This document shows positions 3,961 to 43,090 of a stretch of 43,779 nt of DNA, piece after piece. Each line of letters opens with the position of its first letter. Positions within the stretch are counted from its first letter, which is position 1. The DNA is from a virus (Duplodnaviria > Heunggongvirae > Uroviricota > Caudoviricetes), in the IMG/VR virus record IMGVR_UViG_2534681654_000010; one strand, given 5' to 3'. The notes below the pieces were generated by a model. It worked only from the letters and a program-made list of their open reading frames with translations. It made no database searches and was not told the DNA's origin. Position numbers and translations under genes: made by a program.

Positions 3961-4284
3961 AACAAATAGATTGAAAAGTCATCAACAATGATTCAGGGAG
4001 GTGATTATTTACTTAAAGAAAACGAAGAGTTAGGTGGTGAAAACGATCATAAAATGATCATTTTATTGACTTTTTATACAGTGAAGGTAGGATCACGCGT
4101 ATATGTAGTATGTTTCAAATCAACAGGATACTACATAAAAGTGAAACCCAGCATAGCTGGAACTATGCTGGGTCAATCTGTAAAAACTTGCATCAATGCT
4201 TTACTTCGAGCTCGTGGCGTATCCTATGATATTCCCCGGTCTCCTGTAAAGCAGAGATGCATAAAAAGGAGATCTTTATCATGG

Positions 4285-4452
4285 ATGAAAGAGCCTGTTT
4301 GCCCTGCCTGTAAGACTCCCTTACAGCTCATCTATCGCCGTTCTCGATCTCAAAATGGCAAGACATACAAACCCAAAAATGCTTCCTGTTTCAGGATGCT
4401 GATATGTCCTGCCTGTTCTCCCAGGAGGGAAAATACACAAAACGTGCATTAA
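4285..4452 (+). CDS. hypothetical small zinc-ribbon protein (CPAC…CPAC), speculative
   Basis: 55-codon frame MKEPVCPACKTPLQ…CFRMLICPACSPRR… with two CPxC motifs; AAAAAGGAGA lies upstream but is better spaced for a 10-codon ORF at 4281; AT-rich context. Confidence 0.3.
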   Translation: MKEPVCPACKTPLQLIYRRSRSQNGKTYKPKNASCFRMLICPACSPRRENTQNVH

Positions 4453-5100: not shown

Positions 5101-7140
5101 TTATTCTGTTACCGCTTTTTTCACTTCCACCACAATGCTGTCAATCAGCACCGGGTAAGTTGCATTTTTTGTGATATCCGTTACGCGGAGTTTGTCCACC
5201 GGGAAAGTTCCTACTGGTGACTGCGTCAGGGTAAACGCGGCACCATCCTGACCATCAATAACCGGAATAACCTGAAGGCTGTTATTTCCTGCAAAACGGA
5301 AGGCCAGCGTATGCCATTCATTATCAAATGCACCAAAGGTTCCCAGTTTCTGGTTATTTGTTGCCACTTTTGCATTGTGGTACATCACATTCAGGTCTTT
5401 TGCGTCTGTCTGGATGTAGAACGATGCCAGCAGATTATTCCCTGCATCCCCTGTCAGGGTGACACCCTGCGGCAGAGAGGAAACCGGCCAGTAAAGCCCC
5501 ATGACATACTGGTTTGCCACCAGGTCGCCAGGTACTTTAAAACGACAACTGATTAAACCACCATTTTTCAGCAGTTCAGCACCAGTACCGGCATCATGAT
5601 CCAGATACCAGGATGATTTACCTGTTTCCTTGGTCAGTTTCATTGCCTTACCACCTGTGCCTCCTGCATCACTGATAATTTCAGCTTTACCGCCAGCCGG
5701 CTCCCAGCCCTGGGCTTTCAGATTTCCTTCTGACTCACTGACACGATAAGACAGCAGTGTTGTGGTTACTGCTTCAGTTTCTGAAGGTGACGGCACTGGT
5801 GCTTCAGTTTCAGAAGATGGAACATCGGCTTTTACTGTGGTTCGCCCCGCATGAGTCAGAACTGCCGTGGCCAGACGGTCGGAAATAATCCCACGACGTG
5901 CCCATGAACTGAAATGGCTGGCCCGGTCCGCAGATGTCCAGGTGGCGGCACTGTTACGCCACGTTGAGCCGTAATAACCAATGGATTCAATATCCGGGTC
6001 TTCTGCCGGATTGTTGGTGGGTACATTCGCGTCATTTTCATCTGTCATTAATGGAACGAAATGAATGTTTTTATCTGTTTTGTTTTTGTAGCCGCCATAG
6101 ATTGCCTGGTATGCCGGTTCATTTTTCTGTTTCCAGAAATACGTGGTATCGCCACAAATCCACGGAACGCCAGCAGCACTGCCACCGGTACACTGTTCCG
6201 CCTGTTCAGCCAGGTCTGCGCGGAATTTTTCCACCATCGCCAGAAACAGCGCGGAATGCTCCGTCGGCTTCGCATCAATATCAAACTCGCCCTGCATCCA
6301 CACCACAGCAAGCAGGCGGTTTTTCGGGTTCTTCGCCAGTGCCGCTTTTGTCCGGCTGATTAAGTCCTTATACAGCGGCTTATCCACACCCCAGCGGGCT
6401 GAGTCCTCTGAAGCACCCGTGCTGTCACTGTACGTGCCGTCAGCACCCGCCGTGAATGCAGAACCACCACGGCAGCAGGGAACCAGCAGAATCCCCGCAT
6501 CTGCCGGAATAAACGGCAGCAGTTTTTTGGCAATGTGAAGCCCCTGACCCACGGTGCCATATTGCCCTTTAGCCACATCCGCTTTCGGGTGATTTTTTCC
6601 ACTCATATCCTGCACATCATGCAGACAGTGGTCGGCCAGAATGATGTCGTTATACTGACAGGCTTTACCTCCCGGCGTGACTGTACTGCGACGGGCTAAC
6701 TGCATAATACGCGGTTCGGGGCGGTCATATGTCTCCGGCAGTGGCAGACCTTCACCGTAAGCCATACCGTTTGACTGACCAGCAAGAACCACCACGTAAT
6801 ACCAGGAAGGGGAGCTGGAAGCAGTTTCATTTCCTGACGGACGGGTATGTGTTTCAGCATTATCCCAGTCTGACGGTTCAGCAGTACCGGCAACATCAGC
6901 ACTTAACGGAATGACCGCACCAATACCCGCTCCGGTAATTTCCACACTCGGATCACCGGATACTGGCCTTACCCACAGGCAATCCCGTGTATTAAAACTG
7001 ATGAGACAGTCAGCAAATGTCATTCCTCCTTTTGTTTCGGCCGGAGGAAAGGGAGCCTCAAGAAATGCCGCTGTACCACCGGAAACTTTAACAGTAAAGT
7101 TTCCGGGCATTGATGATAGTTGAACCCATTTGGACGTCAT
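5101..7140 (-). CDS. SGNH/SASA-family esterase, NanS-p-like (putative sialate O-acetylesterase) with C-terminal lectin-like domain
   Basis: 679 aa; GQSN serine motif in YYVVVLAGQSNGMAYGEG and overall resemblance to prophage-encoded NanS-p esterases of E. coli; lies between gin and com-mom. Confidence 0.6.
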   Translation of the reverse strand: MTSKWVQLSSMPGNFTVKVSGGTAAFLEAPFPPAETKGGMTFADCLISFNTRDCLWVRPVSGDPSVEITGAGIGAVIPLSADVAGTAEPSDWDNAETHTRPSGNETASSSPSWYYVVVLAGQSNGMAYGEGLPLPETYDRPEPRIMQLARRSTVTPGGKACQYNDIILADHCLHDVQDMSGKNHPKADVAKGQYGTVGQGLHIAKKLLPFIPADAGILLVPCCRGGSAFTAGADGTYSDSTGASEDSARWGVDKPLYKDLISRTKAALAKNPKNRLLAVVWMQGEFDIDAKPTEHSALFLAMVEKFRADLAEQAEQCTGGSAAGVPWICGDTTYFWKQKNEPAYQAIYGGYKNKTDKNIHFVPLMTDENDANVPTNNPAEDPDIESIGYYGSTWRNSAATWTSADRASHFSSWARRGIISDRLATAVLTHAGRTTVKADVPSSETEAPVPSPSETEAVTTTLLSYRVSESEGNLKAQGWEPAGGKAEIISDAGGTGGKAMKLTKETGKSSWYLDHDAGTGAELLKNGGLISCRFKVPGDLVANQYVMGLYWPVSSLPQGVTLTGDAGNNLLASFYIQTDAKDLNVMYHNAKVATNNQKLGTFGAFDNEWHTLAFRFAGNNSLQVIPVIDGQDGAAFTLTQSPVGTFPVDKLRVTDITKNATYPVLIDSIVVEVKKAVTE

Positions 7141-7239: not shown

Positions 7240-7800
7240 TTATTTTTCCGAAACGCTCGCAGGATAATAACGATAAAGGGTTGAAAGGCCGATATCAAAA
7301 ATAAGTGCCACCTGTCTTCGACTGACACCCCCGGCCAGTAAACGCCCGACCTGCTCGTATTGTTCCTGCGTGAGACGACGGGGTCTGCCGCCGGTTCGTC
7401 CCCTTTCACGGGCAGCTGCAAGACCAGCCCGTGTCCGTTCGACAATTAATTCACGCTCCATTTCTGCCAGCGCACCCATTATGTGAAAAAAGAAGCGCCC
7501 CATGGGGGGTGACGTATCAATGTTGTCAGTAAGACTACGAAAATTTATCCCCTGTTGCTGTAATTCATCTGTCAGCGCAACAAGGTGGCGCATACTGCGC
7601 CCCAGCCTGTCCAGTTTCCAGACCATCAGTGTGTCACCGGGTTTTAGTTTCTTCAGTGCCCGCTTCAGTCCCGGCCGCTGTGTCGTTTTACCACTCATTT
7701 TATCTTCAAAAATCTGCTCACATCCTGCACATTCCAGCGCATTTCTTTGTAAACCTGTGTTCTGGTCATTTGTTGATACGCGTATATAGCCAATCAGCAT
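7240..7800 (-). CDS. gin: Gin-type serine recombinase (DNA invertase)
   Basis: MLIGYIRVSTNDQNTGLQRNALECAGCEQIFEDKMSG… is a typical Gin/Hin/Pin/Cin resolvase-family invertase with C-terminal HTH; adjacent to the invertible tail-fibre segment. Confidence 0.9.
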   Translation of the reverse strand: MLIGYIRVSTNDQNTGLQRNALECAGCEQIFEDKMSGKTTQRPGLKRALKKLKPGDTLMVWKLDRLGRSMRHLVALTDELQQQGINFRSLTDNIDTSPPMGRFFFHIMGALAEMERELIVERTRAGLAAARERGRTGGRPRRLTQEQYEQVGRLLAGGVSRRQVALIFDIGLSTLYRYYPASVSEK

Positions 7801-7854
7801 GTATTTACCTTCCTTAAAAAGAGGTGGAAAGGCCTTTTAAAGCAGATATACGGC

Positions 7855-7880
7855 ATCCCTGAAACCTTCGGTTTACGGGA
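7855..7880. repeat. gix-like recombination site (gin-proximal), at the outer edge of a ~170-bp imperfect inverted repeat
   Basis: Reverse complement reads TCCCGTAAACCGAAGGTTTCAGGGAT, resembling Gin/Hin/Cin crossover sites; the half-site TCCCGTAAACC is shared with the site at 9231-9256. Inverted homology (~80%) extends from about 7873 to 8040. Confidence 0.55.
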
Positions 7881-8226
7881 TACTGTAAACAGGGCCGCGA
7901 ATGCCCTGCCATCGAACGGAGCGGCTGTTGCAGCGAATAAACTCGCCACTCCAAGAAATATTAATGGTGTCCCATTTGACGGAACGCAGGATATAAATAT
8001 TACATCGGGGATGACGCAGTCTGTGGCTGACTCACGTTATGTTCAAAGCATTCGAAGAGGTTCAAGGTCAACGATTGGAATGCAATATAATATTTTTGAG
8101 GTTCCTGACGGATGCGTACTTACAGGGCTTGATGTCGCTGGTGATGGTAATGCAACGGTAACCGCATATTATCGACCTGTTCAGTTTCTGATAGATGGTT
8201 CGTGGAAAACAGCTTCCAGCGCATAA
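7861..8226 (+). other. silent alternative tail-fibre C-terminal cassette (S'v), no start codon of its own in this orientation
   Basis: Frame open from 7777 to 8226; encodes …ALPSNGAAVAANKLATPRNINGVPFDGTQDINITSGMTQSVADSRYVQ… homologous to the C-terminal region of the expressed fibre gene on the opposite strand, then a different tip (…YYRPVQFLIDGSWKTASSA). Confidence 0.65.
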
Positions 8227-8305
8227 AAGTGCAGTAGTTCAAAAAACAGATTATCTGAATAAATATATGATGATTTTGTCTTTTCAACAAAAACAAGGTG
8301 AAATA

Positions 8306-8827
8306 ATGGAGCTTATTAACGTAAAACGATATTACCCGGAACACAAACCCTATGGTGAGGATGTTCAGTATTTCCAGAGTGAGGACGGAAGGGATTTTTA
8401 TGAATCTATCCCGCTTTTCACAAAGAAATACAAACTCTGTATTTCGCCTGTAACGGGTATTATCTGCTCTGTTGCTGAAGATGTCTCTGCTTTATATCCG
8501 GCAGGTTTTACTGTTGTTGAAGTGGACGAACTGCCGGAAGGTGTGAATATTGACGGTAACTGGCAGTTTTCTGATGGCCTGATATCAAAGGTGCCGGTAA
8601 ACTGGAAGACGGTTGCTGAAAAGCGCCGCTCATCGCTGCTCCAGGAAGCCAACGAAACTGTGGATGACTGGAAAACGGAATTAAAACTGGACATGATTAG
8701 CGATGAAAATAAATTACAGCTGACGCGCTGGATGGCGTATATCCGACAGCTTAAAGAAATGCACTTTAATGATATTGCCAGTGAGGGGCATTACCAGGCG
8801 ATTCCCTGGCCGGAAAAACCGGAATAA
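8306..8827 (+). CDS. tail fibre assembly chaperone (U'/Tfa-like), inside the invertible segment
   Basis: 174-aa product MELINVKRYYPEHKPYGEDVQYF… with a Tfa-type C-terminus; follows the S'v cassette on the same strand; AT-rich. Confidence 0.7.
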   Translation: MELINVKRYYPEHKPYGEDVQYFQSEDGRDFYESIPLFTKKYKLCISPVTGIICSVAEDVSALYPAGFTVVEVDELPEGVNIDGNWQFSDGLISKVPVNWKTVAEKRRSSLLQEANETVDDWKTELKLDMISDENKLQLTRWMAYIRQLKEMHFNDIASEGHYQAIPWPEKPE

Positions 8828-8861
8828 TTCAGAGGGTGCATTCAGCACCCTTTTCTGTGGT

Positions 8862-9773
8862 TTACACTGAACTTACCGTTCTCCAGGCATTATTAATATA
8901 AATCTGAACCGGGCGATAATAGACCCCACCGATATTGTCCGCAGACCGGGAGCCGGTTTCCTGCACGTTAATTCCGGAAAGCATACAACCGGAAGGTGCG
9001 CTGTAATTCCATGACATTTCATTGCCTCCGGGTGAATGATAGCTCTGTGCTCCAAGCTGAACATTCTGTACATACCGGCCATCTGCGGTTGACTGCGTCA
9101 TTCCTGACGTGATGTTGATATCCAGCGTTCCGTCAAAAGGAACACCATTAATATTTCTTGGGGTGGCGAGTCTGTTTGCTGCCACGGCGGTTCCACCCGA
9201 TGGCAGGGCATCAGCAGCCTTATTTACCGTTTCCCGTAAACCAACGTTATCGATAAAAGCGCCTTTATCCGGAATGTCTGCGCCGTTCTGCTCCCTGCGC
9301 AGGTAACGGTTATCACCTTCGCTTTTGCTGTAAACATCCAGATTATTACGGGCGGTTCCCGCATTCTCCAGGTCGGCAAGGTTCTGATCCTTCGCCAGAG
9401 CATTAACGTCACCGGGACCAAGACTGTTTTTTGTGGCAAGCGCCCCAAGACCAAGATAACCACGGGCAAGACGCTGGGCTTCCGCACCGGCATCAGCAAT
9501 TTCTTTCAGGTTGTTTTTCCGGGAAAAGGCATTCGCAGCGATAATGGCTTTAATGGACAGCGTAAGCTGGTTTAACTGCGCCTTATCCGGCTGAATACTG
9601 GCTTCAGCCAGAATATTCAGCAGTTCGGCCTGGAGAATATTCAGCCAGTCCTGACCAATCCAGCTGATACCTTTTTGTCCGTCACCTTCGGTAAACCAGG
9701 TGGTGGTATTACTCTGCGCCGGTGCCAGCGCAGGCATATTCGCCACGCCGGAATTATTATCAACATGGAACAT
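8862..9773 (-). CDS. S: tail fibre protein (constant N-terminus fused to the currently expressed variable C-terminus, Sv)
   Basis: Start MFHVDNNSGVANMPALAP… overlaps the stop of the upstream gene (TAATG); the C-terminal ~120 aa lie inside the invertible segment and end …GGVYYRPVQIYINNAWRTVSSV. Confidence 0.75.
   Translation of the reverse strand: MFHVDNNSGVANMPALAPAQSNTTTWFTEGDGQKGISWIGQDWLNILQAELLNILAEASIQPDKAQLNQLTLSIKAIIAANAFSRKNNLKEIADAGAEAQRLARGYLGLGALATKNSLGPGDVNALAKDQNLADLENAGTARNNLDVYSKSEGDNRYLRREQNGADIPDKGAFIDNVGLRETVNKAADALPSGGTAVAANRLATPRNINGVPFDGTLDINITSGMTQSTADGRYVQNVQLGAQSYHSPGGNEMSWNYSAPSGCMLSGINVQETGSRSADNIGGVYYRPVQIYINNAWRTVSSV
9231..9256. repeat. gix-like recombination site inside the tail-fibre gene
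   Basis: TTCCCGTAAACCAACGTTATCGATAA resembles Gin/Cin/Hin crossover sites; inverted ~170-bp homology with 7873-8040 runs inward from here (about 9065-9240). Confidence 0.55.
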
Positions 9774-41437: not shown

Positions 41438-41609
41438 GTATCAAAAGTTTTGCCGATTTTAGAATAAACGATTAATTATTGCACAATCGGTATCAAATAG
41501 ACTTTAAGCGCTCATCCAGACATCACCTGTTTTATTTCAGTATCTTACAGGTGATTTCACCTCCTTTCACTAAAACCCTCGTTGGTATCAAATGATTCAC
41601 CTGGTTACA
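41438..41609. repeat. element end (Mu left-end equivalent) with GTATCAAA transposase-binding-like repeats
   Basis: GTATCAAA at about 41438-41446, 41489-41497 and 41584-41592; element terminates …GGTTACA at 41609 (terminal CA). Confidence 0.6.
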
Positions 41610-41614
41610 GGGAT
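41610..41614. repeat. target-site duplication GGGAT, right copy
   Basis: Identical to 2850-2854; followed by H-homologous sequence gat cgt gaa aag…. Confidence 0.8.
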
Positions 41615-43090
41615 GATCGTGAAAAGGCCCGTCTTGCGCTTGAAGCCGCCCGAAAGAAGGCTGAGCAGCAGAGTCAACAGGACAAAAATGCGCAGCAACA
41701 GAGCGATACCGAAGCGTCACGGCTGAAATATACCGAAGAGGCGCAGAAGGCTTACGAACGCCTGCAGACGCCGCTGGAGAAATATACCGCCCGTCAGGAA
41801 GAACTGAATAAGGCACTGAAAGACGGGAAAATCCTGCAGGCAGATTACAACACGCTGATGGCGGCGGCGAAAAAGGACTATGAAGCGACGCTGAAAAAGC
41901 CGAAACAGTCCGGCGTGAAGGTGTCTGCGGGCGATCGTCAGGAAGACAGTGCTCATGCTGCCCTGCTGACGCTTCAGGCAGAACTCCGGATGCTGGAGAA
42001 GCATGCCGGAGCGAATGAGAAAATCAGCCAGCAGCGCCGGGATTTGTGGAAGGCAGAAAGTCAGTTCGCGGTACTGGAGGAGGCGGCACAACGTCGCCAG
42101 CTGTCCGCACAGGAGAAATCCCTGCTGGCGCATAAAGACGAGACGCTGGAGTACAAACGCCAGCTGGCTGTACTTGGCGACAAGGTCACCTATCAGGAGC
42201 ACCTGAACGCGCTGGCACAGCAGGCGGATAAATTCGCACAGCAACAACGGGCAAAACGGGCCGCCATTGATGCAAAAAACCGGGGGCTGACTGACCGGCA
42301 GGCAGCGCGGGAAGCCACGGAACAGCGCCTGAAGGAACAGTATGGCGATAATCCTCTGGCGCTGAATAACGTCATGTCAGAGCAGAAAAAGACCTGGGCA
42401 GCTGAAGACCAGCTTCGCGGGAGCTGGATGGCAGGCCTCAGGTCAGGCTGGAGTGAGTGGGAAGAGAGCGCCACGGACAGTATGTCGCAGGTTAAAAGTG
42501 CTGCCACGCAGACCTTTGATGGTATTGCACAGAATATGGCGGCGATGCTGACCGGCAGTGAACAGAACTGGCGCAGCTTCACCCGTTCCGTGCTGTCCAT
42601 GATGACAGAAATTCTGCTTAAGCAGGCAATGGTGGGGATTGTCGGAAGTATAGGCAGCGCCATTGGCGGCGGCGCATCAGCGTCAGGCGGTACAGCCATT
42701 CAGGCAGCTGCGGCGAAATTCCATTTTGCGGCCGGAGGGTTTACGGGAACCGGCGGCAAATATGAGCCAGCGGGGATTGTTCACCGTGGTGAATTTGTCT
42801 TCACGAAGGAGGCAACCAGCCGGATTGGCGTAGGAAATCTTTACCGGCTGATGCGCGGCTATGCCACCGGCGGTTATGTCGGTACACCGGGCAGCATGGC
42901 GGACAGCCGGTCGCAGGCGTCCGGGACGTTTGAGCAGAATAACCATGTGGTGATTAACAACGACGGCACGAACGGTCAGATAGGGCCACAGGCACTGAAG
43001 GCGGTTTATGACGTAGCCCGTAAGGCGGCAATGGATGTTGTGACCGGGCAGATGCGCGATGGTGGTCTGTTCTCCGGAGGTGGACGATGA
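41610..43090 (+). pseudogene. H: tape measure protein H, C-terminal fragment, separated from its 5' part by the Mu-like insertion
   Basis: Frame reads …DDREKARLALEAARKKAEQQ… to …MRDGGLFSGGGR*, matching the lambda gpH C-terminal portion; in frame with the N-terminal fragment once the insertion and one TSD copy are removed. Confidence 0.9.

Follow-up and report, generated by a model that had tools for sequence, protein, structure and literature searches.

Invertible tail-fibre cassettes are a textbook host-range hedge of temperate phages, and tail-fibre assembly (Tfa) chaperones are thought to be required for fibre tips of the Mu/P2 class. The C segment of P1 (Cin), the P segment of e14 (Pin) and the Hin switch of Salmonella share recombinase family and logic with the locus described here, an invertible tail-fibre segment in the Mu-like prophage of IMG/VR record IMGVR_UViG_2534681654_000010 (43,779 nucleotides; this whole stretch of DNA is referred to below as the window). 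P1 and e14 carry two chaperone genes each, and Hin switches a promoter, not a coding tip.

Invertases of the Gin/Hin family act on 26-bp sites, whose 2-bp cores have to match, with the help of a Fis-dependent enhancer (PMC3798978, PMC3575834). Asadulghani et al. (2009; PMC2669165) described an invertible host-specificity region in the prophage Sp18, with genes unlike those of Mu, scored its host-specificity function as atypical, and found Sp18 DNA to be packaged. In the Shigella phage SfMu, G inversion has been proposed to be reduced or abolished by a natural change of 1 bp that adjoins the central crossover bases in one of the repeats (PMC4406740); that change is a substitution, in a Mu-type 34-bp repeat and with the full S-U-U'-S' gene set, whereas the window carries an insertion that changes spacer length, and a single chaperone gene. 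Both the Sp18 switch and a natural cis-lock are thus already known. What we did not find described is the conserved one-chaperone asymmetry of this locus, the strict co-variation of its crossover cores (TT/TT or TC/TC), and a widespread allele with one extra base in a crossover site; literature searches on single-chaperone invertible segments gave nothing usable. We regard the asymmetry and the apparently jammed allele as modest new details.

Judged by its sequence, the window element is an Sp18-type Mu-like prophage of Escherichia coli, and its invertible locus is the equivalent of the Mu G segment. Across 2.7 kb around the feature the locus and Sp18 of E. coli O157:H7 Sakai share 99.9% identity and the order of their genes, and more than 30 other complete genomes of Shiga toxin-producing E. 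coli (STEC) carry prophages that differ from the window by at most one base over these 2.7 kb. The window copy differs from Sakai Sp18 in its crossover cores (TTC/TT rather than TT/TT) and in a T98P change in the Gin invertase. The reading that we favour, and consider probable as a whole, is that the locus is an Sp18-type G-segment switch, that this copy is frozen with one of its two tips (Sv) expressed, and that fibres bearing Sv are probably functional.

In the mechanism proposed, a Gin-family invertase would act on two inverted 26-bp sites homologous to the gix sites of Mu, and the 1.37-kb inversion would fuse a constant fibre part (Sc) in frame to either Sv or an alternative tip (S'v); only the S'v orientation would place a tip and tfa in one late transcript. 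Since the invertase is expected to cut at a fixed distance from each half-site and to religate 2-nt overhangs, a 3-bp spacer should not exchange productively with a 2-bp partner. The window copy would then most likely be stuck in the orientation that expresses Sv and leaves tfa on the non-transcribed strand, and Sv would either be served by the single Tfa from another transcript or fold without Tfa. Coordinates of the features are collected in Table 1.

Table 1. Features of the invertible tail-fibre locus in the window, in order of position.
Feature	Positions	Strand	Evidence and remarks
gin, serine DNA invertase, 186 aa	7240..7800	-	Pfam Resolvase E=1e-50, HTH_7 E=2e-14; PHROG DNA invertase
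Gin-proximal crossover site (L)	7855..7881		ATCCCTGAAACC / TTC / GGTTTACGGGAT; 3-bp spacer; 67-68 bp from gin ATG
Invertible segment	7870..9242		1373 bp; inverted, with the exchange point precisely at the sites, in at least 15 complete E. coli genomes and 5 IMG/VR contigs
S'v, silent C-terminal cassette, 118 aa	7870..8226	+	without its own start codon at the site; 57% identical to Sv
tfa, tail-fibre assembly chaperone, 173 aa	8306..8827	+	Pfam Caudo_TAP PF02413 E=2e-18, above the curated cutoff; co-oriented with S'v
GC-rich hairpin (GGGTGC / GCACCC) and T-run, terminator-like	8831..8853	+	between the convergent tfa and Sv stops
Sv, tip expressed in the window orientation, 126 aa and stop	8862..9242	-	ORF; no chaperone gene downstream
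Crossover site (R), inside the fibre gene	9231..9256		TTCCCGTAAACC / AA / CGTTATCGATAA; canonical 12+2+12
Sc, constant N-terminal fibre part, about 177 aa	9245..9773	-	PHROG 1833 tail fibre E=6e-166 (whole fibre)

The tail genes lie on the minus strand. After homologues of Mu gp45, gp46, gp47 and gp48 comes a fibre gene of 303 aa (8862-9773); its place after the gp47 and gp48 homologues (gp48 by Pfam) is the one that the G segment has in the tail module of Mu. As in a Mu-type G segment, the constant fibre part lies outside and alternative variable parts lie inside, in frame both ways: Sc+Sv makes up the 303 aa of the window fibre, and Sc+S'v is a 295-aa in-frame fusion in genomes with the segment inverted (WP_032213164.1), both proteins being annotated and abundant. 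Sc is 98% conserved in a subgroup of relatives with 81%-identical Gin. The last ~70 residues of Sv match the C-terminal domain of Mu S (5YVQ_A), with a stronger match to the short tail fibre of phage phiTE (9CUY), and Tfa (PHROG 136, E=1e-57) matches Mu U (PDB 5YVQ_B, E=2e-15), so that both tip domain and chaperone have homologues in the Mu S and U pair (PDB 5YVQ). The locus departs from the G segment in its length (1.37 kb against 3.0 kb in Mu), in the 3-bp spacer of site L, in an 80-bp AT-rich spacer before tfa (2 bp in Mu), and in its tips of about 120 aa. A first-pass annotation, made from the sequence alone, had described one fibre segment followed by two different tips; two tips there are, but they are not unrelated, their 57% identity extending over the whole length.

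The same annotation had noted two gix-like sites in inverted orientation that share a half-site, one near gin and one inside the fibre gene, and both are present, with TCCCGTAAACC exact at 7870-7880 (minus strand) and 9232-9242 (plus strand). Read as its reverse complement, R (TTATCGATAACG-TT-GGTTTACGGGAA) aligns with the Mu gix sequence TTATCCAAAACC-TC-GGTTTACAGGAA; both stand on fibre codons for GL(Q/R)ETVN, the core dinucleotide sitting in a Val codon (GTT or GTC). The homologue of site L in Mu is gixR, 67 bp from gin; in the window the distance is the same 67 bp with the extra base added. Position on the fibre codons and distance from gin are shared with Mu, to whose sites these are homologous base for base, and the TC core of Mu is also that of many Sp18-type relatives. 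Inverted homology does run inward from the sites, as had been claimed, over a measured 185 nt (7861-8045 and 9067-9251, 77% complementary), and no other inverted repeat in the 43.8-kb window comes near it in length. This long degenerate repeat is the coding homology of two related tip cassettes, the recombination substrates being the 26-bp sites. A third exact copy of TCCCGTAAACC (42738-42748, minus strand) lies in a lambdoid tape-measure gene outside the Mu-like prophage; its second half-site is absent, and the match is probably due to chance.

Evidence that the family switch inverts is comparative and comes from assembled genomes, and orientation counts come from genomes that are related to one another. 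When 5,426 complete E. coli genomes were searched with the locus inverted in silico, 23 matched at least 80% of its length, and six of these did so at 99.3-99.9% identity; matches in the window orientation numbered 182 genomes. In the inverted genomes each arm retains its own sequence right up to the 26-bp site, which places the exchange at the sites. The exact Sc+S'v protein was present on 153 contigs and Sc+Sv on at least 1000 in a collection of 15 billion proteins, and among the IMG/VR contigs (loci L026-L044) 14 have the window orientation and five are inverted. On this comparison the family switch is active on a timescale of 0.1% sequence divergence, and the proposal of a Gin-type invertible segment stands, with a Gin 75% identical to that of Mu and a family found in both orientations.

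Crossover cores were matched in every relative with 2-bp cores. In the sampled RefSeq complete genomes six prophages had TT/TT and six TC/TC, and on the IMG/VR contigs, whose cores were read by a site-pattern search (a crude inverted-repeat finder often picked chance 11-mers), one had TT/TT and 14 had TC/TC, with no mismatch in either set. Matching in 27 of 27 prophages, with both orientations in each core class, is what a serine invertase requires, since its 2-nt overhangs must pair after the 180-degree rotation (PMC3798978, PMC3575834). In two inverted prophages (L004, O157:H7 Z869; L005, 2012C-4502) the first ~25 nt of the S'v arm are replaced by Sv-arm sequence, and the resulting 298-aa hybrid-arm fibre (P0004) occurs on 205 contigs; such arms suggest gene conversion or a second exchange point between the arms.

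Site L of Sakai is ATCCCTGAAACC-TT-GGTTTACGGGAT, a normal 12+2+12 arrangement; in other relatives this site likewise has a core of 2 bp, TT or TC. In the window this site is 12+3+12, with one base more than Sakai (TTC) and both half-sites intact, so that two canonical sites, each with 12-bp half-sites and a 2-bp core, are found in Sakai and 26 other relatives but not in the window, where TTC at L faces TT at R. The first-pass annotation had suspected from unmatched central dinucleotides that the switch might be locked. The mismatch is present, but it is really a 1-bp insertion in the L spacer (3 bp against 2 bp in Sakai and all other relatives), and the lock is probable for this copy, not for the element at large, whose relatives invert with matched cores.

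Junction-specific queries of 72-73 nt against the complete E. coli genomes returned 36 records with TTC, 24 with TT and 88 with TC among window-orientation junctions, and no TTC among the inverted junctions on either the L (gin) or the R (fibre) side. Set against 15-23 inverted among ~130 unlocked relatives, 0 of 36 gives a Fisher p of 0.003-0.02, a test that overstates the case since the genomes are related. Read data with free inversion and matched cores were what the annotation had named as speaking against a lock; in the assembled genomes, both orientations are seen for TT/TT and TC/TC relatives and not for the TTC allele. The mechanistic step is that a 3-bp spacer would leave a 3-nt overhang that could not be joined to a 2-nt overhang. 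We judge it likely that the TTC allele is locked with Sv expressed. A small hypothetical ORF that the NCBI pipeline places across the gin-side site (window 7794-7949, minus strand; 7483-7669 in loci L006-L009) is flagged as frameshifted in exactly the TTC genomes; the extra base thus accounts for the frameshifted ORF that annotation pipelines flag at this spot in STEC genomes, a handy marker of the +1 allele in public annotations.

By a linked SNP (7232A), all TTC prophages, that of FRIK2533 among them, trace to a Sakai-like TT/TT ancestor, which points to a single origin of the allele from such a phage. The R core of FRIK2533 has since changed to TC, giving a TTC/TC mismatch of a kind never seen in the 27 unlocked prophages; such drift fits relaxed constraint. 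The allele is found at no fewer than five insertion sites and in at least four serotypes: in a lambdoid portal gene in O145:H28 12E115 and in O26 RM10386, in dcuC in O157:H7 FRIK2533, in yoaF in O103 RM8385, and in a lambdoid tape-measure gene in the window. Since each lysogenisation places a transposable phage at a new site, this spread implies, provided that the allele is of single origin and the lock real, that particles with a locked genome were infectious, and hence that Sv-tip fibres work; on this comparison, fibres carrying Sv are probably functional.

The invertase itself is full length, 75% identical to Mu Gin over 181 aa, and retains the catalytic-serine motif YIRVSTNDQ. Over its first ~190 nt, gin can be aligned with the Mu gene, and the distance between site and gin is also conserved; in Mu, the Fis-bound recombinational enhancer lies in that 5' part of the gene. 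Relative to the common allele, the window Gin carries T98P (window position 7509, codon 98) in the motif DTS(T/S)PMGR; all 80 IMG/VR homologues compared have T at this position, and Mu has S. The T98P allele occurs on 31 contigs, with TC/TC and TTC/TT backgrounds and several insertion sites, and is thus a real allele.

The chaperone arrangement is also as the first-pass annotation had it: a single Caudo_TAP gene lies on the strand of the silent cassette, the expressed tip has no chaperone gene behind it, and Mu carries two, the comparison with the Mu locus showing two convergent tfa genes. A further Tfa-like gene, which it had named as contrary evidence, was found neither by tblastn of Tfa against the whole window nor by Pfam on the local ORFs. 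The convergent stops of tfa and Sv lie only 34 bp apart, leaving no room for a second chaperone gene, and the dedicated chaperone behind each tip that marks a Mu-type G segment (U and U') is lacking: one orientation alone couples tip and chaperone. A hidden chaperone antisense to tfa was considered (a 98-aa ORF at 8398-8694, minus strand, within a 130-aa stop-free stretch) and rejected as most likely spurious, since the stretch shrinks to at most 67 aa in 64%-identical tfa alleles, Mu U and Rac-SA53. The hairpin between the two stops is kept in variant tfa alleles and, from its sequence, may terminate both transcripts.

This one-tfa layout (Sc, tip, oppositely directed tfa, second tip, gin) recurs in variants from E. 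coli whose tip alleles differ and whose tfa is just 64% identical, in the subgroup with 81%-identical Gin and 61%-identical tfa, where both orientations occur, and in Citrobacter braakii, with much longer tips and a 67%-identical Gin. A search with Sc against one genome per species returned only four loci, two of them informative. Two convergent tfa genes are found in Mu and in many loci with 72-77% Gin identity. By this distribution the single tfa is a conserved layout of the clade, not a recent deletion or local accident.

Whether Sv belongs to a chaperone-free class of tips can be judged from its relatives. Sv-like tips (45-64% identical) stand immediately upstream of a Caudo_TAP gene in five other contexts (P2_4E6b, Rac-SA53, Actinobacillus phage pPE4, phage 19-1-2 and the silent cassette of C. 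braakii); with a tfa gene always following elsewhere, Sv does not come from such a class. The closest outside relative of the window Tfa is the Rac-SA53 protein (53% identical, full length), whose cognate tip is 64% identical to Sv and only 38% to S'v, and within the family, a tip with no more than 55% identity to S'v is followed by a tfa 96.5% identical to that of the window. Variation in the tip therefore seems to be tolerated by Tfa, and the single Tfa plausibly serves both tips. Among the options for the Sv state, a Tfa shared through some expression route or supplied in trans is the most credible, although well short of established; that Sv folds unaided comes next, as a real possibility; and a defective Sv state is unlikely, the least likely of the three, given that the apparently locked allele has spread and that Sv-orientation copies are in excess in all data sets.

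The closest competitor to a lock is that the window switch still flips, with the extra base tolerated or the register shifted, and that the lack of inverted TTC junctions is a sampling effect. Gin is full length, R is canonical and both L half-sites are intact, and with only about 12-15% of unlocked relatives inverted, and genomes that are related, 0 of 36 is not overwhelming. Yet a 3-nt overhang cannot religate to a 2-nt one; recombination in a shifted register (core TT, inner half CGGTTTACGGGA) would frameshift the fibre gene by moving the extra C into it, and no junction with an extra C on the fibre side occurs in the 5,426 genomes; and the R core has drifted to TC in one TTC sublineage, with no mismatch among the 27 unlocked prophages. 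We therefore think continued flipping rather unlikely. The long arms, and the hybrid arms of Z869 and 2012C-4502 with their hint of gene conversion, would suit inversion by RecA homologous recombination between the 185-bp arms in place of site-specific exchange. This is very improbable: arms of inverted genomes are unmixed up to the 26-bp site, cores co-vary in 27 of 27 prophages, 77% identity with short exact runs makes a poor RecA substrate, and a Gin homologue adjoins sites homologous to gix.

A further alternative takes the single chaperone as decay, a second tfa (the equivalent of Mu U) having been deleted so that Sv fibres misfold and the prophage is defective in that state. Two convergent tfa genes in Mu, P1-type and many other Gin loci would fit such a loss, as would the Tfa gene that always follows Sv-like tips elsewhere, and Mu S needs U, according to a summary of Mu work (PMC9608196). 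Decay seems to us improbable. Three Gin clades (99%, 81% and 67% identity), with a wide range of tip alleles in both E. coli and Citrobacter, share the one-tfa layout; in every data set Sv-orientation copies outnumber the others; the Sv allele that appears to be locked is present at five or more insertion sites and in no fewer than four serotypes; and in Sakai, Sp18 DNA is packaged efficiently (PMC2669165).

Several points weigh against the favoured reading of a switch frozen in this copy with functional Sv fibres. The lock rests on mechanism and on 0 of 36 genomes that are not independent samples, and searches for gix spacer-length mutants gave nothing usable, no paper testing a 3-bp gix/hix spacer having been found in the literature searched. 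T98P is an additional change in the window Gin, found on unlocked backgrounds too. No tfa promoter for the Sv orientation was found by a sigma-70 scan upstream of tfa and between gin and the site, a scan of limited force as Mu late promoters do not follow the sigma-70 consensus, so that the shared-chaperone idea lacks an expression route; the two spacer types that occur upstream of tfa have no obvious promoter or signal in common. A free switch is expected to stand near 1 to 1. The Sv orientation, that of the chaperone-less tip, is commoner by about 6-8 to 1 in RefSeq and the protein collection, and by 14:5 in IMG/VR; founder effects of infecting particles, unequal rates or clonal sampling could each produce such an excess.

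Other features of the window concern the element as a whole. The Mu-like prophage (about 2860-41560) interrupts the tape-measure gene of a lambdoid prophage, whose halves lie at 1781-2855 and 41582-43090; the lambdoid genes for major tail and chaperone, also outside the Mu-like element, are at 164-1788. The Sakai Sp18 copy is inserted in the sorbose operon instead (PMC7430833). Stx phages annotated with an inserted Mu-like phage are present in GenBank. Between gin and com/mom, a 679-aa protein (5101-7140, minus strand) combines a sialate-O-acetylesterase-like SASA domain with a C-terminal DUF6645; it has no counterpart at that place in Mu, is 66-97% identical in all Sp18-like relatives examined, and could be a surface-glycan esterase for host recognition or lysogenic conversion. 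A 154-aa cysteine-rich ORF without a family match (3988-4452, plus strand) lies between com and a DUF826 gene, on the strand opposite to all its neighbours, and is conserved in the relatives examined.

Taken at its fullest, the locus would be a conserved asymmetric switch in which tip and chaperone are co-expressed one way and a Tfa-class tip is expressed alone the other way, with particles fully infectious nonetheless, as the spread of the apparently jammed allele suggests, a proposal that we put forward tentatively and with some doubt. If true, either a tip of the Mu S class would fold without Tfa, or one Tfa would serve two tips through orientation-independent expression, and inversion would toggle chaperone coupling as well as receptor specificity. 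Two tips with one chaperone pose the question of whether the tip is truly chaperone-dependent or the chaperone shareable, which bears on the engineering of fibre swaps in phages and tailocins; for that question the +1 allele, carried in many sequenced STEC strains, would be a natural fixed-orientation control.

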